Below are positions 2,317 to 14,304 of a DNA stretch of 14,304 nucleotides, piece by piece. The position numbers and the translations under genes were made by a program. Below the pieces are notes generated by a model that ran no database searches, was not told the DNA's origin, and saw only the letters and a list, made by a program, of their open reading frames with translations. The stretch spans positions 1-14,304 of IMG/VR virus record IMGVR_UViG_3300032291_002057, one strand, 5' to 3'. This DNA comes from a virus (lineage: Duplodnaviria; Heunggongvirae; Uroviricota; Caudoviricetes). Every line of letters begins with the position of its first letter. Positions within the stretch are counted from its first letter, which is position 1.

Positions 2317-2357
2317 GTAATTTTTTCTAGATTTTATGAAATTTTATTCAAAATGGA

Positions 2358-2382
2358 ATAAATATTCTGTCATCATATTTAT
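2358..2382. promoter_or_regulatory. Face-to-face pair of T4-like late-promoter boxes (ATAAATA on each strand)
   Basis: ATAAATAT at 2358-2365 and ATATTTAT at 2375-2382 form a perfect 8-bp inverted repeat with a 9-nt spacer between divergent genes. The core resembles the T4 late promoter TATAAATA. Confidence 0.6.
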
Positions 2383-2395
2383 ATTAGGAGAAACG

Positions 2396-3352
2396 ATGAA
2401 GAAACTTTTATGCATACTAGCACTTATTCCTGCACTATCATTTGCATGGCAACCAACAAAACCTATCACTGTTATATTCCCAAATGGTCCGGGGGCGGGC
2501 AATGAGATATCATTCTTTTTTGTTGCTGATATTGTAGAAAAGAAAACAGGTGTTACCTTTACAAGAGAACATAGACCTGGCGCAGACGGTAATATCGCAA
2601 TGAATCATTTTGCTACAGTTCCTAATGATGGACATACTATTGCAGTTCCTGCTTGTAATAGTCAATGGATTACTGCTGATGTATGGTACTCACAGATGTT
2701 AAAATACAATGTATATGATTTTGAACCAGTAGCAAACATAGCACGTAGTCCATTAGCATTTTGGGCACATCCCGAAAGTAAAGTCAACACTCCTGAAGAT
2801 TTGATTAGAGAAATACGTGAAAAGAAACGTCCTATTAATTTTGCTATCGGTGGAGGTGGACATAAATTAGCAGTAGAATATTTAACTACAAAACTAAATG
2901 TACCCGGTGGTGATAGAGTTCAGACAATTATGTACAAAGGTCCTGCACAAGCATTGATGGACACAATGGGAGGTCATACTGAGTTTTCTGTTACACCAGT
3001 GGGAGTAGGATATCCCCACGTTAAAGCAGGCAAGTTAAAATTGATTGGATTAGCAAGCGAAGTACCACTAAAAGGTTTAGAGTCTGCTCCATTAATGAGT
3101 AAGTATGCCCCAGGATTAAATTTATATGGTTGCTGGAACTTAGTACTACCTAAAGGAACATCCGCTGAGATACAAAAATGGTACCATGATAATTTTGTAC
3201 CTGCTATTCGTAGTAAAGAAGCAAAAGAAAAATTTGACGAGAACTTAATGTTCATAACTACTAAAGAACATTCTCCAGAAGGTGTCCGTGCTAGTATGGT
3301 ACTATTAAGTAGAGATTGGATTAACATAGCAAAGAAGATTAAACCTGAATGA
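2396..3352 (+). CDS. tctC: Tripartite tricarboxylate transporter substrate-binding protein (TctC/Bug family)
   Basis: Start reassigned to ATG 2396 (AGGAG at 2386-2390). Signal peptide MKKLLCILALIPALSFA|W; WQPTKPITVIFPNGPGAGNE, HRPGADGNIA, DGHTI, MYKGPAQAL, GKLKLIGL and W-LVLPKGT match the Bug/TctC pattern. Confidence 0.85.
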   Translation: MKKLLCILALIPALSFAWQPTKPITVIFPNGPGAGNEISFFFVADIVEKKTGVTFTREHRPGADGNIAMNHFATVPNDGHTIAVPACNSQWITADVWYSQMLKYNVYDFEPVANIARSPLAFWAHPESKVNTPEDLIREIREKKRPINFAIGGGGHKLAVEYLTTKLNVPGGDRVQTIMYKGPAQALMDTMGGHTEFSVTPVGVGYPHVKAGKLKLIGLASEVPLKGLESAPLMSKYAPGLNLYGCWNLVLPKGTSAEIQKWYHDNFVPAIRSKEAKEKFDENLMFITTKEHSPEGVRASMVLLSRDWINIAKKIKPE

Positions 3353-5605: not shown

Positions 5606-6214
5606 ATGATTCATCTACTTTTTCCGTTACCAAAAGAGTTAATTGTCGCATTTAGCGGCGGTGTGGATAGTACCGCTATCGTAGATTTTTTAAGTAACAA
5701 ACACAAAGTAACATGTGCCTTCTTTCATCACGGCACTGAAAATAGCGAACGTGCATTTGAATTTGTTGCAAGGTTTTGCACTGAACGTGAATTACCTCTA
5801 ATAGTAGGCTTTATTAAAAACAGTAAATCAAAAGAATTAAGTACCGAAGAACATTGGCGTAATGAACGCTATGAATTTTTAAATAGCTTTGGTGATGGTC
5901 TAGGTCCTATTGTAACAGGACATCATTTAGATGATTGTGTTGAAACATATATCTGGTCAGCATTGCACGGTAAACCCAAAGTAATCCCTTGCGCTAGAAA
6001 TAATGTTATCCGACCATTTTTAACTACAACTAAACATGAATTTGTTAATTGGTGTGAGCGTAAAAATATTGAATGGTGCCATGATAACAGCAACGATGAC
6101 GACCATTACACTAGAAATTATGTTCGAAAACATTTAGTGCCACATGCATTACATGTTAACCCAGGGTTACGTACAACGGTTAAAAAGATTGTTGAACGTC
6201 AGCAAAATGTTTGA
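5606..6214 (+). CDS. tilS: tRNA(Ile)-lysidine synthetase, catalytic domain only (202 aa)
   Basis: PP-loop AFSGGVDS, HHG, RNERY, TGHHLDDCVET, IRPFL and DNSNDDDHYTRNYVR are TilS signature motifs. The C-terminal TilS domains are absent. Confidence 0.9.
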   Translation: MIHLLFPLPKELIVAFSGGVDSTAIVDFLSNKHKVTCAFFHHGTENSERAFEFVARFCTERELPLIVGFIKNSKSKELSTEEHWRNERYEFLNSFGDGLGPIVTGHHLDDCVETYIWSALHGKPKVIPCARNNVIRPFLTTTKHEFVNWCERKNIEWCHDNSNDDDHYTRNYVRKHLVPHALHVNPGLRTTVKKIVERQQNV

Positions 6215-6261: not shown

Positions 6262-6528
6262 ATGTCTGATTATAATCGCACCTTTAATGGTGATGCAAAA
6301 ATTAAGTTAACACAACTCATCAATGAGGGTATGTCAACATTACATGAAATTGATACGTTGAACGGTGGATTGAATGATACCATCAAAGCAATCGCAGAAG
6401 AATTGGAAATCAAGGCTTCAACATTGAAGAAAGCAATTAAGATTGCACACAAAGCAAGTTTAGGTCAGGCTAATAGAGACCATGACGAACTCAATACTAT
6501 TTTGGAAACTGTGGGTAAAACACTTTGA
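6262..6528 (+). CDS. Small dsDNA-binding protein, T4 DsbA / GapR (DUF2312)-like, 88 aa
   Basis: Start reassigned to ATG 6262 (AAGGAG at 6251-6256; the TTG at 6211 is the -35 box). Helical pattern LTQLINEG..EIDTL...LNDTIKAIAEELEIKASTLKKAIKIAHK resembles DsbA/GapR. Confidence 0.65.
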   Translation: MSDYNRTFNGDAKIKLTQLINEGMSTLHEIDTLNGGLNDTIKAIAEELEIKASTLKKAIKIAHKASLGQANRDHDELNTILETVGKTL

Positions 6529-9242
6529 GTTATGTAGATGCTATTCATAGCAGGGATGAGGATCGCATCTTTGTAGTTGAACGTGACAAAAATGGGTTGC
6601 GTCAATACAAAGAATATCCTGCTAATTACGTTTTATATTATCCTGACGTAAAGGGTAAGTATCGTAGTATCTATGGCAATCCTGTCAGTCGTTTTAGTAC
6701 TCGCAAACGTGCTGAGTTTGAAAAAGAAAAACGTATACAATCAGGTAAAAATCTGTTTGAGAGCGATATCAATCCTGTCTTCCGATGCCTGAGTGAAAAC
6801 TATTTAGGTGTTGATGCACCTAAACTACACACTTGTTTCTTTGACATTGAAGTAGACTTTGATCCAGAAAAAGGTTTCAGTCCTACTAGTGATCCATTCA
6901 ATCCAGTAACTGCAATCAGTATGTATTTGGATTGGCAAGATACACTAGTAACATTGTGTATTGCGCCAAAGCACATGACCACAGATACAGCATGGGAAAT
7001 CACTAAAGAGTTTGAGAACTGTTTGCTTTTCAATAACGAAAAGGAAATGTTTGATACATTCTTTGAATTGATTGAAGATGCTGATGTATTAACTGGTTGG
7101 AACTCAGAAGGATATGATATACCATATATGGTTAATCGTGTCACCCGTGTAATGAGTAAAGACGATACACGCAAATTCTGTTTAATGGGTCAACTACCCA
7201 AGCCAAGAGAATATGAACGATTTGGTAAGTCAGAACAGACTTATGATTTGGTTGGTCGTATTCACATGGACTATCTTCAACTCTATAAGAAGTACAATTA
7301 TGAAAGTCGCCATAGCTATAAACTAGATGCTATTGGTGAGTTGGAGGTTGGTGAGAACAAAACACAATATGAAGGTACTCTTGACCAATTGTATAACAAG
7401 GACTTTAAGAGGTTCATTGAATACAATCGACAAGATACCATGTTGTTGGTAAAGATTCACAACAAATTAAAATTCTTAGAGTTAGCTAATCAACTAGCAC
7501 ATGAAAACACAGTACTGCTTCCAACAGTAATGGGTTCAGTGGCTATGATTGAAATGGCTATATTTAATGAAGCCCACGAACGTGGTTTAGTTGTCCCTGA
7601 TAAAAAACGAAGGAAAGAAAATGCAGAAGATGTCCAACAAGCGGCAGGTGCCTATGTTGCTACGCCCAAAAGAGGTATGCACGAATACGTCGGAGCAGTT
7701 GATATCAACTCGCTCTACCCCTCGGTTATTAGAGCCCTTAATATGGCGGGAGAAACAATCGTCGGGCAAGTCAGACAAACAATAACTGACCAGTATATGG
7801 CTGATAAAGGTCAAAGACTTGCATCAGAAAAGAAACGTCACAAAGAGGGTGATGATGCAGTTACTGGTAGTATTCTATGGGAAAATTTGTTTGGTGCATT
7901 AGAGTACACTGCAATTATGAATCAAGAACGTGGCACTATGCTTACAATTGATTATGAAGATGGTCGTAGTGAAGAACTGAGTGCGGCAGAAATATGGAAA
8001 CTGGTCTTTGATAGTCATAAGCCTTGGATGCTTAGTGCAAATGGTACAATCTTTACGTATGAAAAAGAAGGTGTTGTTCCTGGATTACTATCTCGCTGGT
8101 ATAGTGACCGTAAAGAAATGCAGAAAAAACTAAAAGAAGCAACGACCCAAACTGATAGAGAGTATTGGGATAAGCGACAACTGGTACGCAAGATTTTGCT
8201 TAACTCTGCATACGGCGCACTATTGAATGAGCATTGCAGGTTCTATGATAAACGTATTGGTCAATCAGTAACATTGAGTGGTCGGCAGATTGTTCGTCAT
8301 ATGATGAGCCAAATCAATGAATGTGTTACTGGTGAATATAATCACGAAGGTAGCGCAATTGTTTATGGTGATACTGACAGTTGTTATTTTAGTGCATATC
8401 CTGTTCTCTATTCGCAAATACAGAATGGTGAATTACAATGGGATAAAGACTTGTGCATCTCATTGTATGATAACATTGCTGACCAAACGAATGATAGTTT
8501 TCCTGGATTCATGGAAAAAGCATTTCACTCACCTCGAAAGAATGGCGAGATTATTAAAGCTGGTCGTGAACTGATCGGTGATCGTAGTATCTTTATTACA
8601 AAGAAACGTTATGCTATCAATATCTTTGATAAAGAAGGCAAGCGTAAAGACAGTGAAGGTAAAGCAGGAGATATTAAGGCTATGGGTCTTGATTTGAAAC
8701 GTGCAGATACTCCTAAACAAGTACAAGAGTTCTTAATGTCTATTCTTAGTATGGTAATTCAAGAAGGTAAAGGTCGTGATGAAGTCATTGACAAAGTGAA
8801 AGAATTCAAACGTGTGTTATCTCAACAAGACAGTTGGACTAAGGGTTCTCCTAAAGGTGTTAATAAGTTAACAAGCTATGGAGAACTTGAAGCTAACAGT
8901 AAAACAGGTCGTGCTAACATGCCCGGTCACGTTCGTGCGGCACTTAACTATAATTATTTGCGTAAAGTTCACGGAGATAACTACAGTCAAAAAATTGTTG
9001 ATGGAATGAAAATTGTAGTATGCAAACTCAAGCCCAATCCATTAGGATTTACAAGTGTTGCATATCCAGTAGATGAATTACGTTTACCGCAATGGTTCTG
9101 TGACTTGCCATTTGACGATGATGCTATGGAGCAAACACTTGTTGATGAAAAGATTGACAACTTGCTTGGAGTATTAGATTGGGACATTCGCAGTAACACA
9201 GATGTAAAATCAACATTTGATGAATTGTTTACATTCGGTTAA
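6525..9242 (+). CDS. gp43: Family B DNA polymerase, T4 gp43-like, uninterrupted
   Basis: ExoI FFDIEVD, ExoII WNSEGYDIPY, ExoIII YNRQDT, motif A VDINSLYPS, motif B KILLNSAYG, motif C YGDTDS, and C-terminal clamp-binding-like STFDELFTFG. TTG start overlaps the upstream TGA. Confidence 0.97.
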   Translation: MSYVDAIHSRDEDRIFVVERDKNGLRQYKEYPANYVLYYPDVKGKYRSIYGNPVSRFSTRKRAEFEKEKRIQSGKNLFESDINPVFRCLSENYLGVDAPKLHTCFFDIEVDFDPEKGFSPTSDPFNPVTAISMYLDWQDTLVTLCIAPKHMTTDTAWEITKEFENCLLFNNEKEMFDTFFELIEDADVLTGWNSEGYDIPYMVNRVTRVMSKDDTRKFCLMGQLPKPREYERFGKSEQTYDLVGRIHMDYLQLYKKYNYESRHSYKLDAIGELEVGENKTQYEGTLDQLYNKDFKRFIEYNRQDTMLLVKIHNKLKFLELANQLAHENTVLLPTVMGSVAMIEMAIFNEAHERGLVVPDKKRRKENAEDVQQAAGAYVATPKRGMHEYVGAVDINSLYPSVIRALNMAGETIVGQVRQTITDQYMADKGQRLASEKKRHKEGDDAVTGSILWENLFGALEYTAIMNQERGTMLTIDYEDGRSEELSAAEIWKLVFDSHKPWMLSANGTIFTYEKEGVVPGLLSRWYSDRKEMQKKLKEATTQTDREYWDKRQLVRKILLNSAYGALLNEHCRFYDKRIGQSVTLSGRQIVRHMMSQINECVTGEYNHEGSAIVYGDTDSCYFSAYPVLYSQIQNGELQWDKDLCISLYDNIADQTNDSFPGFMEKAFHSPRKNGEIIKAGRELIGDRSIFITKKRYAINIFDKEGKRKDSEGKAGDIKAMGLDLKRADTPKQVQEFLMSILSMVIQEGKGRDEVIDKVKEFKRVLSQQDSWTKGSPKGVNKLTSYGELEANSKTGRANMPGHVRAALNYNYLRKVHGDNYSQKIVDGMKIVVCKLKPNPLGFTSVAYPVDELRLPQWFCDLPFDDDAMEQTLVDEKIDNLLGVLDWDIRSNTDVKSTFDELFTFG

Positions 9243-9323: not shown

Positions 9324-10055
9324 ATGAAAGATTATTTGAAAGATTTGATTGACCATACACATGGTCTAGGTAATATTGACTTGATTAAAGTCACGGGTTC
9401 AGCAACTGAAACTACTATCAATGCAATTGCAGAAGATAAGGCAGTTATTGTTAGTGGAACATTTAAGACTCCCATCGCTGACTTCATTGGTGTGTTTGGT
9501 ATGCCAAATTTGAGCAAGTTAAAAACTATTGTTGGCTTTGAAGAATATGATGAACATGCTAAAATTAATGTTGTTAGTACACAGCGAGATGGTATGGATG
9601 TTCCTAGTACTATTCACTTTCAAACTAAGAACGGCGACTTTATCAATGACTATCGTTTGATGTCCAAAGGTATTGTTGAAGAAAAGGTAAAAAGTGTAAC
9701 GTTCAAGGGTGCTTCATGGAATATAGATTTTGAACCAACTATTGCAGGCATCTTGCGTTTAAAGAAGCAATCAAGTGCTAATAGTGAAGAAAAAACTTTT
9801 ACAACTAAAACTGAAAATAGTGATTTAAAAATCTATTTTGGTGATCCATCTACTCACAGTGGTAACTTTGTATTTCATACAGGTATCACAGGTTCTTTAT
9901 CAAAAGCATGGGCGTGGCCTGTAAAAGAATTTATGAGTATCATGGATCTAGTTGGTGACAAGGTTGTTCGCATTAGCGATCAGGGTGCTACTGAAATCAC
10001 TGTAGATAGCGGGATTGCAGTATATCGTTATCTATTGCCTGCACAACAAAAATGA
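9324..10055 (+). CDS. Putative DNA polymerase sliding clamp (T4 gp45/PCNA-like)
   Basis: 243 aa, alternating strand/helix pattern consistent with a two-domain clamp (FGMPNLSKLKTIV, DFINDYRLM, FVFH, WAWPVKEFMSIM, EITVDSGIAVYRYLLPA). Sits immediately after the polymerase. Call rests on size, pattern and context. Confidence 0.65.
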   Translation: MKDYLKDLIDHTHGLGNIDLIKVTGSATETTINAIAEDKAVIVSGTFKTPIADFIGVFGMPNLSKLKTIVGFEEYDEHAKINVVSTQRDGMDVPSTIHFQTKNGDFINDYRLMSKGIVEEKVKSVTFKGASWNIDFEPTIAGILRLKKQSSANSEEKTFTTKTENSDLKIYFGDPSTHSGNFVFHTGITGSLSKAWAWPVKEFMSIMDLVGDKVVRISDQGATEITVDSGIAVYRYLLPAQQK

Positions 10056-10444
10056 TTAACAACATAACACCAATCGGCAAATACATACAGGTTTCTGGCA
10101 GCGGTTCTACCTACGTGTCTAGGAGTTATAACTCAAATGCCAAGATGGTCGGTGACATGATGTATGATGTTGATGCTCAATGTATCAAAGTGTTTGATGG
10201 CAATAGTTGGACAATATTGGCAAGTCCCTCAGTTTCTGTTGGGTTAAATCACGAAGCAGAAAGTTTATTAGATTGGGCAAGAAAGAAGCGTAACGAAGAA
10301 TTAGAATATGAACAACTTGCCGAAACTAATCCTGCCATCAAAGATTTGTTAAGTCAAATCAAAACAAAAGAAGAACAAATACAAATGGTAATGACTTTAC
10401 TTAAAAGTCCAGGAAATGAGCCAGTAGAATTAATGGGAAGTTAA
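10052..10444 (+). CDS. Hypothetical protein, 130 aa, C-terminal coiled coil
   Basis: ATGA overlap upstream and TAATG overlap downstream. No recognised catalytic motif. Confidence 0.75.
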   Translation: MINNITPIGKYIQVSGSGSTYVSRSYNSNAKMVGDMMYDVDAQCIKVFDGNSWTILASPSVSVGLNHEAESLLDWARKKRNEELEYEQLAETNPAIKDLLSQIKTKEEQIQMVMTLLKSPGNEPVELMGS

Positions 10445-12000
10445 TGGAACAAGATAACTTATCACAAAAACAAAATCCAGACTGGGCATTGTTTTTACCC
10501 GCAGTTAGTAGTTTTTATATTGCTGGTTTAGGCAAACAACGTAAGGGTGAAGACTACTTTGATAAAGCAAGAATCCCTGCAGGCTTTAATGGTGATGTAG
10601 AGAAACTAAACTTTCTTAATAGCAAAGAAGGTCTTTACTATTATAAATGGGGTCTATATTCAGCAGGTCATGCAAACTTGGATACAACAGTTGATGACCA
10701 TAATGAAAGCATCATACGTGAACGTGAACAAGGTACGTTTATGTTAGGTGATAGTGGTGGTTTTCAGATATTAAAGGCTCAATGGCCTGCTGACTGGAAA
10801 GATCCTAATTGCCCACGTGCTATGAAAAAGCGTAAACAAGTATTGACATGGATGGATACATACATGGACTATGGTATGTGTTTAGATATCCCAAGTCAGT
10901 CATTGACTACGTTTCATATTCAAGACCCAAAGACTAAAACATCTGCTCACGGTATCAGTACTATTGAAGAAGCTATCACAGCAACACATATCAACAATGA
11001 GTACTTTATTAAGAATCGCAATGGTAAATGCAAGTTTTTGAATGTACTTCAAGGTCGCAATCATACTCAATCACAAGATTGGTATAATGAAATGAAGAAG
11101 TATTGTGACCCTAATGTATATCCAGACAATCATTTTAATGGTTGGGCGTTTGGTGGACAAAATAAGATTGATGTTCATTTGATGTTAACACGTATGATTG
11201 ATATCATATATGATGGATTGTTACAAGAAGGTAAACATGATTTGATTCATTGCTTGGGTACAAGTATTTTAGAATATGCAGTATTGTTTACTGATATTCA
11301 AAAAGCTATTCGTAAGTATCATAATCCTAAACTACAAATTACATTTGACTGTGCAAGTCCTTTCTTTAGTGCGGCTAAAGGTTTAGCATATTTCAATACT
11401 AGTATTGAGCATAATAAAAAGTGGTCATACAGTATGGAAAAGACTGCGGAGAAAAAGTCTTATGCAAATGACACACGTAAGTTCAGTACTGCTGTTCTTG
11501 CTGAGGGTGTTCATAAACTGTTCACTGATAGTCCGGTAACTGATAAATTAATTCTTAAAGACCTGTGCTATCGTGGTGTAGGTTTCATTGGTCAACACGG
11601 TAAAGAAACAAAAACAAGCTGGGATACATTGAGTTATACACTAATTCAGTCACACAATGTTTGGATGCATATGAATGCAGTCCAAGAAGCAAACCGTAGA
11701 TATGAACAAGGAATAGTTCCTAAAATGTTAATGAATGAAACATTTGAAAGTGTTTTATTTAAAGACATTATAGATGAAGTATTCAGTAAAAAAACTAAAC
11801 AAGAAGCCATTGATTTAATAGATAGTCATTCAAGACTATGGATGCAATTTCAATCAGGTAGTCAAGGTATTAGTGGTAAAAAAACTGTTAATGCTATGAC
11901 AATGTTTGACCAGTTATTTGAACAGGAAGAAAATGATTCAGAAGTTGAAGAAATTATTGAAGATAGTGATGATGAAATGGCGCAAATTTTGGAGGCGTAA
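10444..12000 (+). CDS. tRNA-guanine transglycosylase-fold protein, probably a DpdA-like DNA guanine transglycosylase
   Basis: TGT barrel motifs in order: MLGDSGGFQ (10750-10767 for DSGGFQ), MCLDIPS, LNVLQG, GWAFGG, IHCLG, ITFDCASP and SHNVW. The CxCxxC zinc motif is absent. Acidic C-terminal tail. Confidence 0.8.
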   Translation: MEQDNLSQKQNPDWALFLPAVSSFYIAGLGKQRKGEDYFDKARIPAGFNGDVEKLNFLNSKEGLYYYKWGLYSAGHANLDTTVDDHNESIIREREQGTFMLGDSGGFQILKAQWPADWKDPNCPRAMKKRKQVLTWMDTYMDYGMCLDIPSQSLTTFHIQDPKTKTSAHGISTIEEAITATHINNEYFIKNRNGKCKFLNVLQGRNHTQSQDWYNEMKKYCDPNVYPDNHFNGWAFGGQNKIDVHLMLTRMIDIIYDGLLQEGKHDLIHCLGTSILEYAVLFTDIQKAIRKYHNPKLQITFDCASPFFSAAKGLAYFNTSIEHNKKWSYSMEKTAEKKSYANDTRKFSTAVLAEGVHKLFTDSPVTDKLILKDLCYRGVGFIGQHGKETKTSWDTLSYTLIQSHNVWMHMNAVQEANRRYEQGIVPKMLMNETFESVLFKDIIDEVFSKKTKQEAIDLIDSHSRLWMQFQSGSQGISGKKTVNAMTMFDQLFEQEENDSEVEEIIEDSDDEMAQILEA

Positions 12001-12001
12001 A

Positions 12002-12211
12002 ATGTACGAAAATCAAATTGATAAATTACAACAACAATTTAATAATCTTGATACACAAATAAGTGTTACTAAACAAAATCCTAACTATGATTCTCTTGTA
12101 CTACAAAACATGGAGAGCCAGAGGCACCTGATTTATTATGAAATTCAACGATTAAAACGTAAACAGTGGGAAGAAGATAACGAACGAGTTGAGTTCGATG
12201 ATGACCGTTAA
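12002..12211 (+). CDS. Small coiled-coil hypothetical protein, 69 aa (DUF465/YdcH-like pattern, weak)
   Basis: Start reassigned to ATG 12002 with GGAGG at 11991-11995; LDTQI...EIQRL heptad pattern. Confidence 0.65.
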   Translation: MYENQIDKLQQQFNNLDTQISVTKQNPNYDSLVLQNMESQRHLIYYEIQRLKRKQWEEDNERVEFDDDR

Positions 12212-12212
12212 T

Positions 12213-12767
12213 ATGATACCAAACTTAGAAAAACCAATAATTAATTTTGATCCAAAAAGAAAAATATTCATTAAAGAGAATGTTTTGGATCCTGATATGT
12301 GTGACAGTATTATTGAGTTTGGAAAAACTAATGTAATCAAAGGAGTGAACAAATATACACACTTATTTGACATAAGTTTTCATTCTTGTATATTACCATT
12401 AAATCACGAATCACATGTTAAATTATCAGATACGTGGAATGAAATTAGTGAACATTTGAATATGCCGATTGATTTTGTAGAACCTTATGAATTAAAAAGG
12501 TATACTCCTACTGATTTTTTCGGGAAGCATACAGACAATTATTTTTGTCACAAAGATGGCATTGATAGGAAAATTACATTGAGTATACAACTTACTGATG
12601 AAACAGACTTCACTGGTGGAGATTTCTTAATCCTTAATCAACCTGGTCCAAAAGCAAAAGGTAGTATTGTAGCATTTCCCAGTTTCTTCCCACATGAAGT
12701 GAAACCAATTGATACTGGTGTTAGATGGTCATTAATAAGCTGGGCTTGGGGAAAAGATTTTACTTAA
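12213..12767 (+). CDS. 2OG-Fe(II) oxygenase, prolyl-4-hydroxylase/PKHD-type
   Basis: Start likely ATG 12213. KRY...KHTD (HxD), RKITLSIQL, DFTGGDF, GSIVAFPSFFPHEVKPI (distal H), GVRWSLISW (2OG-binding R). Confidence 0.85.
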   Translation: MIPNLEKPIINFDPKRKIFIKENVLDPDMCDSIIEFGKTNVIKGVNKYTHLFDISFHSCILPLNHESHVKLSDTWNEISEHLNMPIDFVEPYELKRYTPTDFFGKHTDNYFCHKDGIDRKITLSIQLTDETDFTGGDFLILNQPGPKAKGSIVAFPSFFPHEVKPIDTGVRWSLISWAWGKDFT

Positions 12768-12781
12768 ACTAACCAATAACA

Positions 12782-12810
12782 TTGTATTACTAACAAAACA
12801 ATGTTATACT
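12782..12810 (+). promoter_or_regulatory. sigma70-type promoter of the QueD-like / sugar-enzyme operon (TTGTAT-17-TATACT, extended -10)
   Basis: TTGTAT 12782-12787, TG 12802-12803, TATACT 12805-12810. Confidence 0.75.
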
Positions 12811-12838
12811 AATTTTATATTAACTAACTGTAATAACT

Positions 12839-13291
12839 ATGGAACAAAACATTCAAGCAATGACTGAAAAACGTGTACGCATTAAACATCACGCCAAACG
12901 TATGATTTTCGTAACATTTCAAAAAGAGGGTATTCATTTATACCCAGCGGCAGCAACAGATCCAGCACTCGCAACGGGTGATGAATATGATGTTAGCTTT
13001 TTAGGAACTCCACATCGTCACATCTTTCACTTTAATGTGGCGATTGAAGTATTTCACAACGACAGGGATATTGAATTCATTCAATTTAAACGCTGGTTAG
13101 AGAATCTCTATAAAGGCGGAACACTTGAATTGAATTACAAGAGTTGTGAAATGATTAGTGATGACCTCTACGAAGTTATTGCTACTAGATATCCCGAGCG
13201 TGACATTGAGATTACTGTCTCCGAAGACGGTGAGAACGGTGCTACGATTTATTACAACACAACAAAACCTTTCAACAACCTCGCTATTTAA
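12839..13291 (+). CDS. QueD/PTPS-like tunnelling-fold protein lacking the catalytic Cys
   Basis: Aligns by eye with QueD: FQKEGIHLYP ~ FTFEAAHRLP, PHRHIF ~ LHGHSF, IEFIQFK ~ IDFAELK, SCEMI ~ TSEVL, TVSEDGENGATIY ~ MVKETCTAGCIY. Start could be the ATG at 12860. Confidence 0.7.
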   Translation: MEQNIQAMTEKRVRIKHHAKRMIFVTFQKEGIHLYPAAATDPALATGDEYDVSFLGTPHRHIFHFNVAIEVFHNDRDIEFIQFKRWLENLYKGGTLELNYKSCEMISDDLYEVIATRYPERDIEITVSEDGENGATIYYNTTKPFNNLAI

Positions 13292-13302
13292 AGGAAAACA
13301 AA

Positions 13303-13509
13303 ATGGCAAAACCAACATTTCAAACTAATCCCCGTGTTACTCAACTATTTGAAGACTTAGAAAAATACAAAGAGTTTTGCGTAGACTTTGGGTATAAGTA
13401 TGATGAAGCAGATTTATATAACCAACGCAGTTATGTATATCGACAATATACTAAATTTGCTACAGGTAAAAATGCAAAAAATCAATGGTCGGAACACGCA
13501 CGTCCATGA
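13303..13509 (+). CDS. Hypothetical protein, 68 aa, aromatic-rich
   Basis: SD AAAGGA directly upstream; ATGA overlap with the next gene. Confidence 0.75.
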   Translation: MAKPTFQTNPRVTQLFEDLEKYKEFCVDFGYKYDEADLYNQRSYVYRQYTKFATGKNAKNQWSEHARP

Positions 13510-14261
13510 AAATAGTATTAGTCACTGGGGGATTTGATCCTCTACATAGTGGGCATATTGAATATTTTCGTGCCGCTAAACAATTAGGAGACTTACTAGT
13601 TGTAGGTCTAAACAGTGACGCATGGCTGACCCGTAAGAAAGGTCAGCCTTTTATGCCTCTGGAAGAACGTAGAGCCATTGTTGGTTCATTGAAAGATGTT
13701 CATGCTACTATGACATTCAATGATGATGACGGTTCTGCTAAAGATTTATTAGTAAAAATCAAACGTGAGTTTCCATATGCTAAGATTGTGTTTGCTAACG
13801 GCGGTGATAGAACACCGGATAACATTCCTGAAATGGATGTACCTAACATTGAATTTGCATTTGGCGTAGGTGGTGATAACAAAATGAACAGTAGTAGTTG
13901 GATACTACGTGAATGGAAGCAACCTAAAATATTGCGTCAATGGGGTTACTATCGTATACTGCATGATGTACCCGGGACTAAAGTAAAAGAATTAACAGTA
14001 GAGCCGGGTAAAAGTTTAAGTTTACAACGGCATAAACATAGAGCAGAATATTGGCATATATCAGAAGGAAGATGTGCTGTAGAACAAAGAATGCCAAATG
14101 GATATCAGTTACCTATAGTAGAATTAGATACACTAAGTCAGACAGTTATACCTATGCACGATTGGCATAGATTGTATAATCCGTTTGATGTTCCATGCAG
14201 AATAATAGAAATTCAATATGGTACGGAATGCAATGAAGAAGATATTGAGAGAAAAGAATGA
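13506..14261 (+). CDS. Fusion: cytidylyltransferase-family nucleotidyltransferase (RfaE/HldE/TagD-like) + mannose-6-phosphate-isomerase type II-like cupin
   Basis: Start reassigned to ATG 13506 (ATGA overlap). N-domain TGGFDPLHSGH (HxGH), GLNSD, RKKGQPF, FANGGDR. C-domain RQWGYYRIL, VKELTVEPGKSLSLQRHKHRAEYW, WHRLYNP, IIEIQYG, EEDIER. Confidence 0.85.
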   Translation: MKIVLVTGGFDPLHSGHIEYFRAAKQLGDLLVVGLNSDAWLTRKKGQPFMPLEERRAIVGSLKDVHATMTFNDDDGSAKDLLVKIKREFPYAKIVFANGGDRTPDNIPEMDVPNIEFAFGVGGDNKMNSSSWILREWKQPKILRQWGYYRILHDVPGTKVKELTVEPGKSLSLQRHKHRAEYWHISEGRCAVEQRMPNGYQLPIVELDTLSQTVIPMHDWHRLYNPFDVPCRIIEIQYGTECNEEDIERKE

Positions 14262-14304
14262 GAACACTATATTACATGGGTCTTGAACCTTATAAAGCAA
14301 GATA
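14258..14304 (+). CDS. 5' end of the next CDS (MRTLYYMGLEPYKAR...), possibly a GT-B glycosyltransferase
   Basis: ATGA overlap; frame open to the window edge. Only 15 codons are visible, so the glycosyltransferase call rests on my recollection of similar phage N-termini and on context. Confidence 0.4.
   Translation, partial: MRTLYYMGLEPYKAR

Follow-up and report, generated by a model that had tools for sequence, protein, structure and literature searches.

Bacterial DpdA and the phage enzymes DpdA1 and DpdA2 insert preQ0, a base made with QueC, into DNA, and they keep their zinc site. A different route is known from phage phiST, in whose DNA 2'-deoxy-7-deazaguanosine (dDG) replaces all deoxyguanosine (dG) by way of the DpdL pathway (PMC10516641). 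DpdL is defined by the motif LxxxHRHxF, which replaces the CxxxHGH of QueD, and is a predicted 7-carboxy-7-deazaguanine (CDG) decarboxylase (Cui, Hutinet et al., NAR 2023, PMC10516641). In addition, the DNA of phage PA5oct resists restriction at G-containing sites and is a target of nucleases specific for modified G; QueE and a PTPS were the only related genes noted in this phage, and no identity was assigned to the base (PMC12191111). Here we analyze the candidate 7-deazaguanine locus in the first 14.3 kb (14,304 nucleotides, the window) of the IMG/VR virus record IMGVR_UViG_3300032291_002057. The record is 114,406 bp long with a CheckV completeness of ~30%, and the source is therefore a jumbo phage, one that is uncultured. 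All genes with window coordinates given below lie on the + strand. The assignment as a 7-deazaguanine DNA-modification locus, made earlier by a sequence-only reading of the window, is supported by FolE, QueD, QueE, DpdL, and a DpdA-like enzyme. We are confident that guanine in the phage DNA is replaced by way of this module. That the window holds the head of a QueC-independent, DpdL-type 7-deazaguanine DNA-replacement module, clamp-tethered and probably sugar-adding, we consider probable as a whole, while a glycosylated deazapurine as the final base is a tentative proposal whose chances fall slightly short of balanced.

The base-making route was indicated by a 150-aa open reading frame (ORF) at 12839-13291. 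Previously described as QueD-like, it is a QueD paralog whose identity is that of DpdL: the signature LxxxHRHxF reads FLGTPHRHIF at residues 54-63, H59, R60, H61, and F63 are invariant in 19 homologs together with an invariant His/Glu set, and the protein is 54% identical to ACP17 DpdL (1e-38) and 35% identical to phiST DpdL (pairwise E 5e-17), with no match to Pfam PTPS. This signature makes unsubstituted 7-deazaguanine (DG) or CDG the most likely product. The remaining enzymes lie 3-8 kb past the window: FolE at ~17.6 kb of the record (324 bits), a true QueD at ~20.4 kb that matches PTPS, and a QueE-like radical SAM enzyme at ~21.2 kb that matches only QueE models, all far under their curated cut-offs. 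A stretch of 11 kb holds the genes for FolE, QueD, QueE, and DpdL, both in this record and in almost every related locus. Thus, although folE, queE, and queC are indeed missing from the window, as had been stated, the first two are found just downstream in the same record. QueC was not found in the 114 kb of the record (~30% complete), nor in the complete genomes of PA5oct, ACP17, BUCT-ZZ01, and phiST, and BUDD gave one 19-bit sub-threshold match elsewhere in its genome. With no QueC in the record or in five cultured relatives and with DpdL present, the earlier framing around preQ0 or preQ1 is not supported; the combination of FolE, QueD, QueE, and DpdL without QueC instead indicates a QueC-independent pathway of the DpdL (phiST) type toward 7-deazaguanine.

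Conservation was judged from 141 related IMG/VR loci, which were retrieved and scored with hidden Markov models (HMMs) built from this record and cultured phages. Presence counts by tblastn refer to a set of 80 related loci, and HMM gene counts to 52 loci with at least 6 kb of downstream flank. Across the 141 loci the gene order is conserved as polB, clamp, TGT-like gene, dpdL, orf68, glycosyltransferase (GT) gene, folE, queD, and queE.

The gene at 10444-12000 encodes a 518-aa protein that, on the basis of its fold model and profile alignment, is a divergent member of the tRNA-guanine transglycosylase (TGT) superfamily with an intact TGT-type active site, and a candidate DpdA-like DNA guanine/7-deazaguanine transglycosylase. 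It carries the motifs GDSGGFQ (D103), LDIPS (D148), and FDCASPF (D302). No match was obtained in Pfam, PHROG, NCBIfam, PADLOC (E up to 1), or the PDB (phmmer or family profile). The Pfam TGT model, PF01702, matched neither the protein nor a six-frame translation of the record, and among 53 family members it matched only two (E 0.011). An AlphaFold2 (AF2) model built on these 53 relatives had a mean predicted local distance difference test score (pLDDT) of 88.4. Foldseek against the PDB returned bacterial TGT entries for all 50 listed matches (E ~1e-7 to 1e-6), and VIA-align against 48,161 chains ranked archaeal TGT (arcTGT, 1iq8) first at Z 18.1, followed by QTRT2 (16.9), TGT (16.0), DpdA 7ui4 (15.0 over 309 residues), and Cap10 (14.1), with other TIM barrels next at 11.5 or less. 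The five best structural matches thus all belong to the TGT superfamily, with its (beta/alpha)8 barrel. Aligned by hhalign to E. coli Tgt (87%, E 4e-6), the family pairs D103 with D89, the general acid/base, D148 with the base-binding D143, and D302 with the nucleophile D264, and all three residues are invariant in 53/53 members. The TGT fold with both catalytic aspartates, as first read from the letters, is therefore correct, although it was the structure model and the profile alignment that revealed it and no sequence library did. The further argument that LDIPS resembles the LDIPT pocket of the archaeal preQ0-inserting enzyme is not supported: arcTGT is the top structural match, yet it scores only 1-3 Z above the other TGT-superfamily matches, and no QueC was found in the 114 kb of the record or in five cultured relatives.

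Relationships within the superfamily were traced with the family profile, which matched a 424-aa protein of ACP17 at 96.8% (E 3e-10) and DpdA3 of phiST weakly and partially (73.8%, E 3e-5, over 82 columns only). In each DpdL phage examined, the best match to the family HMM was the gene beside dpdL, at E values of only 0.002-0.016. We regard the 518-aa family as a long, DpdA3-like branch of DNA transglycosylases.

Upstream of this gene lie a family B DNA polymerase gene (polB, 6525-9242; PF00136 5e-42, PF03104 5e-23, phrog_262 1.5e-197) and a gene at 9324-10055 for a probable sliding clamp of the gp45/PCNA type (243 aa). The clamp has no Pfam match, matches phrog_12062, which has no assigned function, and gave no BLASTP match to an annotated T4-type clamp; its identity consequently rests on language-model neighbors, which were gp45 sliding-clamp and PCNA clusters (score 0.93-0.96, a lead only), and on context. 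It is predicted as a confident trimer (pLDDT 90) and adjoins polB in 80/80 loci. In PA5oct, the polymerase gene is split into two coding sequences by a Hef-like homing endonuclease gene (record 216595-221821), and the clamp-like homolog is annotated as a structural protein from mass-spectrometry evidence.

Shamoo and Steitz are said to have reported in 1999 that the T4 and RB69 polymerases bind the gp45 clamp through a C-terminal peptide. PolB here ends in TFDELFTFG, a tail of the clamp-docking type, and the TGT-like protein carries MFDQLFE ~25 residues before its C-terminus, followed by an acidic tail. An FxxLF-type motif was carried by 129/140 tails of polB and 136/155 of the TGT-like protein, compared to 6/114 tails of a control, the glycosyltransferase GT392 described below. 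Within one phage the two motifs resemble each other: SLDDLFE in polB and TLDELFE in the TGT-like protein of ACP17, SLESLFG and SLEELFG in BUDD, and TLDDFFS and SLDSFFD in BUCT-ZZ01, where a GT445-like protein encoded directly upstream of the TGT-like gene also carries SLEDFFND. Over 15 lineages, which were hand-picked and are not fully independent, same-phage similarity of the tails was 21.7 versus 16.2 +/- 1.1 after permutation, with 0/20,000 permutations reaching 21.7. The number of C-terminal motifs in the whole record, 2 compared to 1.6 expected from shuffles, is not significant alone; what speaks for the clamp is the identity of the proteins that bear the motif, together with its conservation and its covariation. 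That the tail of the TGT-like protein co-varies with polB from phage to phage points to work on replicating DNA. In the C-terminal region (here residues ~473-518, window 11860-12000), FDxLF is followed in many family members by an acidic tail of 20-40 residues that often ends in a short amphipathic segment, SDDEMAQILEA in this case, while other members end at the motif in the manner of the polymerase.

A second GT4-like glycosyltransferase, GT445 (445 aa, record 22477-23814, beyond the window), ends in GLSLFEGL, and an SLF-type tail occurs in 11/12 distinct homolog sequences of its clade; it could be a clamp-tethered DNA glycosyltransferase. These tails suggest to us that the clamp on new DNA recruits the base-exchange enzyme and also, in this clade, one of the glycosyltransferases, which would argue both for DNA glycosylation and against a role in tRNA. 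Modification of phage or host tRNA in place of DNA, which is suggested by membership in the tRNA-guanine transglycosylase superfamily and by a TilS-like tRNA enzyme encoded at 5606-6214, is in our view highly improbable, as the TGT-like gene sits within the polB-clamp operon in essentially all relatives, and its product bears the docking motif of the polymerase and co-varies with it. The restriction resistance of PA5oct DNA also points to modified G in DNA (PMC12191111), and clusters of the DpdL type yield dDG in the DNA of phiST (PMC10516641).

The deazapurine could also enter DNA before replication, by salvage to a deoxynucleoside triphosphate and incorporation by the polymerase, leaving the TGT-like protein with some other role. 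Three features of the gene clusters would fit such a route. The cluster of BUCT-ZZ01 contains an annotated xanthine-guanine phosphoribosyltransferase between queE and queD (record 71302-71763), which hints at salvage of a deazapurine to the nucleotide. A full-length GMP reductase, GuaC, is encoded inside the module here (record 15436-16467, 560 bits, above cut-off) and in 11/52 related loci; it might act during infection to reduce the pool of guanine nucleotides. Lastly, the module includes a fusion of a P-loop kinase with a nucleotidyltransferase. We nonetheless consider this route improbable: no phosphoribosyltransferase (PF00156) was found in the 114 kb of the record, no other gene of the module is as constant as the TGT-like gene, whose catalytic residues are all retained, and a transglycosylase is present in every deazaguanine phage (Cui et al., PMC10516641).

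The feature that sets this locus apart from the phiST pathway is a linked glycosyltransferase. GT392 is a GT4-type glycosyltransferase of 392 aa encoded at 14258-15436 of the record (the window holds 14258-14304) and identified by its AF2 model and co-occurrence. The model (pLDDT 77.5) has a GT-B fold with two Rossmann domains, for which VIA-align gave BshA (Z 23.0, 329 residues), PimA (22.4), a pterin glucosyltransferase (20.8), and T4 alpha-glucosyltransferase (AGT, 19.6); MshA was a further structural match (E 9e-12). The match to Pfam Glycos_transf_1 was weak and under cut-off (1e-4). D292-x7-E300 is invariant in the family alignment and was compared by eye with the EX7E motif of GT4 enzymes.

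Co-occurrence of this glycosyltransferase with the TGT-like clade, scored after grouping the TGT-like proteins into ten clusters (60% identity), was strongly positive, in agreement with the linkage first proposed. DpdL and GT392 were both present in 51/52, 8/8, 5/5, 4/4, 1/1, and 1/1 loci of six clusters and both absent in two clusters, and neither was found without the other. Overall, 70/73 related loci had both and the remaining three had neither. The same pairing is seen in five cultured lineages, with the GT gene adjoining the TGT-like gene in PA5oct, ACP17, BUDD, and BCSR5 and adjoining dpdL in BUCT-ZZ01. A tblastn search of 50,697 phage records with GT392 gave five matches, 5/5 in DpdL-bearing phages, and among contigs of metagenome-assembled genomes (MAGs) the DpdL-GT pairing persists down to 32-37% DpdL identity. 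Sugar donors could be supplied by neighboring genes. A HIGH-motif nucleotidyltransferase fused to a cupin of the mannose-6-P-isomerase type is encoded at 13506-14261 (PF01467 2e-12, PF01050 2e-21, TIGR02199 1e-20) and is optional (23/52 loci), and past the window the module includes an RfaE-domain-II-like nucleotidyltransferase, a P-loop kinase-NMNAT-like nucleotidyltransferase fusion, and a GalE-like epimerase. A full-text literature search found no paper describing glycosylated 7-deazaguanine in DNA or linking a glycosyltransferase to DpdL.

These data bear on whether the end product is plain dDG, as in phiST, with the glycosyltransferase and sugar-nucleotide genes serving a small molecule, virion proteins, or the host envelope. 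The DNA of phiST and of Vibrio phage VP1 is fully dDG-substituted, DG offers no obvious O-acceptor, the folds nearest to GT392 (BshA, MshA, PimA, and pterin glucosyltransferase) are those of small-molecule GT4 enzymes, sugar genes are frequent in T4-like aquatic phages, and the nucleotidyltransferase-cupin fusion, GuaC, and the oxygenase described below are optional. Against these points stand the joint gain and loss of DpdL and GT392 over six clusters, the direct proximity of the GT gene to the TGT-like gene or to dpdL across five cultured lineages, the fact that all GT matches in the phage database fell in DpdL phages, and the polymerase-type clamp tail of the second glycosyltransferase in this clade and in BUCT-ZZ01. 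On balance, we regard plain dDG as a serious but rather unlikely end product.

A related question is whether the sugar genes glycosylate a different DNA base unrelated to deazaguanine, such as the hydroxymethyl pyrimidine of T4. T4 AGT is among the structural matches of GT392 (Z 19.6) and the clamp-type tail of GT445 suggests a DNA target, but no hydroxymethylase of the thymidylate-synthase family (PF00303) was matched in the 114 kb of the record (~30% complete), and the glycosyltransferase tracks DpdL and no pyrimidine gene. We judge this quite improbable.

Taken together, we propose the following model for the DpdL-type module. FolE, QueD, and QueE would convert GTP to CDG, according to the established enzymology of these families, and DpdL is predicted to decarboxylate CDG to DG. 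The 518-aa TGT-like enzyme would then swap guanine in duplex DNA for DG, presumably, by analogy with TGT, through a covalent Asp302-deoxyribose intermediate and with Asp103 as general acid/base. It may ride the sliding clamp behind the fork by means of FDxLF, which would explain near-complete replacement. The GT4-type enzymes would probably, though with chances close to balanced, add sugar to the inserted deazapurine, using donors from the linked nucleotidyltransferases, the kinase-nucleotidyltransferase fusion, and the GalE-like epimerase; the substrate of GT392 may be DNA or else the free base, before it is inserted. The purpose of the module would be evasion of restriction and other DNA-targeting defenses. 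In its most specific form, in which clamp-tethered DG insertion is followed by addition of one or two sugars and guanine is replaced by a glycosylated 7-deazapurine, the first sugar-bearing purine in DNA, the model is possible but tentative.

Several observations weigh against parts of this model. First, DpdL has been assigned as a decarboxylase by prediction only, for every member, and dpdA plus dpdL of ACP17 or phiST made no dDG in E. coli (PMC10516641). Second, the record is ~30% complete, so that the absence of queC from the source phage is not proven. Third, the TGT zinc site CxCxxC...H is absent from the family alignment, where only a scattered C375 (62%) and H404 (83%) were seen, and the protein is missed by Pfam TGT and PADLOC; the call for DNA over another substrate therefore rests on context and the clamp motif. 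Fourth, GT392 is without the clamp motif, and the GT445-like enzyme of BUDD is encoded outside the module and lacks a clamp tail. The choice and partial dependence of the lineages in the covariation test count on the same side. Modeling of the clamp trimer together with the TGT-like tail supports docking, but weakly, with a pass at a score of 0.39 against 0.02 for the best control: the mark was reached by 58/80 solved complexes and 2/110 mismatched pairs, but scores of 0.60 or less were seen in only 7 of the 58 passing complexes and in both passing mismatches. Contact agreement in these clamp-tail runs was at least 50%, and partner pLDDT at least 39. Fifth, RHph_I1_18 and Ahp1 have DpdL with no GT within 15 kb, and phiST makes plain dDG without a GT392 homolog. 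Lastly, DG has no hydroxyl, leaving the acceptor chemistry unexplained. The sugar would therefore need C7, which is freed by decarboxylation and electron-rich, N2, O6, or an unforeseen intermediate. It might sit on C7 by an unprecedented GT4 C-glycosylation; to our knowledge, GT4 enzymes do not form C-glycosides.

Other genes of the window were examined for their place in the module. A 2-oxoglutarate-Fe(II) oxygenase of the prolyl 4-hydroxylase type is encoded at 12198-12767 (PF13640, 2OG-FeII_Oxy_3, 2e-12; phrog_61 7e-26), between the TGT-like gene and dpdL, and hydroxylation had been suggested as a step of the pathway. This is not supported: the gene is present in 6/80 loci by tblastn and 2/52 by HMM, at varying positions, and its product matched only PF13640 and YbiX-like NCBIfam models, with no match to TET/JBP or AlkB families. 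It is a passenger gene outside the pathway. Three small ORFs have no assigned function or are variable: a conserved 130-aa ORF between the clamp and TGT-like genes (10052-10444; 56/80 loci, weak PHROG match), a variable, coiled-coil-like ORF of 69 aa between the TGT-like gene and the oxygenase (12002-12211; 17/80 loci), and the conserved 68-aa orf68 located 3' of dpdL (13303-13509; 61/80 loci), which is also kept in relatives whose TGT-like protein is ~54% identical. All of the ORFs and motifs listed by the sequence-only reading are present at the positions it gave, including both ATGA overlaps (13506-13509 and 14258-14261), and the 69-aa ORF is the one addition to its list.

Further upstream, the TilS-like PP-loop protein (202 aa, 5606-6214) passes the cut-off for the TilS N-domain (TIGR02432, 127.8 bits versus 93.6) and is probably the catalytic domain of a phage tRNA(Ile) lysidine synthetase from which the C-terminal domains that bind tRNA are missing. 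Its gene lies upstream of polB in 24/80 related loci, 52 of the 80 having more than 1 kb upstream of polB, and with this family assignment and distribution it was rejected as a substitute for QueC. The window also encodes a DNA/RNA non-specific endonuclease (706-1515; PF01223 3e-36; 4/80 related loci) and a TctC-type receptor of a tripartite tricarboxylate transporter (2336-3352; PF03401 3e-21; 3/80 related loci), the latter odd for a phage. Just upstream of folE, an ORF of 164 aa (record 17031-17525) with an isoelectric point of 4.05, 38 D+E versus 13 K+R, and no family match could encode a DNA mimic or anti-defense protein; it was found in 1/80 related loci by tblastn.

The module is very abundant. 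An exhaustive HMMER search placed the TGT-like family in 849 clusters at 50% identity, and the linked glycosyltransferase accounts for >8,000 clusters at 90% identity, with >580 encoding IMG/VR stretches. Bacterial chromosomal islands were considered as a further setting and rejected, as 32/32 DpdL loci in the species genome set were MAG contigs of scattered taxa; since most of these carry polB and the clamp, they are read as binned phage DNA and not as bacterial systems. Megablast of the region against phage records gave no match. Among cultured phages, the closest homolog of the 518-aa protein is EST35_0316 of PA5oct (34% identity), which is found in the same order of polB, clamp, small ORF, and TGT-like gene. 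No Pfam-detectable TGT is encoded in the genomes of PA5oct, ACP17, BUDD, BUCT-ZZ01, or phiST.

The module also occurs in Pseudomonas jumbo phages that are relevant to therapy and whose modified G still awaits identification (PMC12191111). Clamp-tethered base exchange would supply a mechanism for complete post-replicative replacement, which was seen but left unexplained by Cui et al. (PMC10516641). If the deazapurine does carry a sugar, both the class of DNA base and the glycosyltransferase chemistry would be new, and this would also explain why dpdA and dpdL of ACP17 and phiST alone gave nothing in E. coli. Because cultured hosts exist (PAO1, Synechococcus PCC 7942, Xanthomonas, and Acidovorax), the claim is directly testable.

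Among known systems, phiST, with FolE, QueD, QueE, DpdL, and DpdA3, is the closest in pathway. Like the phage described here, it has no QueC, its DpdL carries LxxxHRHxF, its transglycosylase is too divergent for Pfam TGT, and the genes lie beside replication genes; the HxLG motif is common to both transglycosylases. The two differ in that phiST DpdA3 has 259 aa compared to 518 aa here, the additional length including a C-terminal helical region and the clamp-type motif, and in that phiST has no gene like GT392 or GT445 and its product is known to be dDG. Cui et al. (PMC10516641) name no linked glycosyltransferase. The same module of TGT-like enzyme, GT-B glycosyltransferase, DpdL, and QueE is found in cultured phages, namely the Wroclawvirus phages PA5oct and MIJ3 (EST35_0316-0322), ACP17, BUDD/X1, BCSR5, and BUCT-ZZ01, where its proteins are annotated as hypothetical or, in BUDD, as a queuine tRNA-ribosyltransferase; for PA5oct, no transglycosylase, DpdL, or GT is named in PMC12191111. 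Only BUCT-ZZ01 among these clusters holds a second GT within the cluster, and the accessory sugar genes differ.

More distant parallels concern the individual enzymes. Bacterial DpdA (Salmonella Montevideo, PDB 7ui4) and phage DpdA1 and DpdA2 likewise exchange DNA bases with a TGT fold, which the 518-aa model matches in 7ui4 at Z 15.0 over 309 residues. The present protein differs from bacterial DpdA, which acts with DpdB, in having no PADLOC match and no zinc cluster. The T4 alpha- and beta-glucosyltransferases are phage GT-B enzymes that decorate an already modified DNA base, as GT392 and GT445 are proposed to do, and AGT is matched at Z 19.6, but they act on a hydroxymethyl pyrimidine that is formed at nucleotide level, whereas the folds closest to GT392 are GT4 small-molecule enzymes (Z 21-23). 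We know of no clamp-docking tail on the T4 glucosyltransferases. The polB tail of T4 and RB69 is a short hydrophobic-acidic motif of the L/F-D-x-L/F-F type, and the same type occurs here on polB, the TGT-like enzyme, and the second GT; unlike those polymerases, many TGT-like members carry an acidic extension past the motif, and binding is predicted only. The known system is therefore DpdL-type dDG, and what seems to be new here is an unannotated, long transglycosylase, seemingly clamp-tethered, with obligately linked glycosyltransferases.

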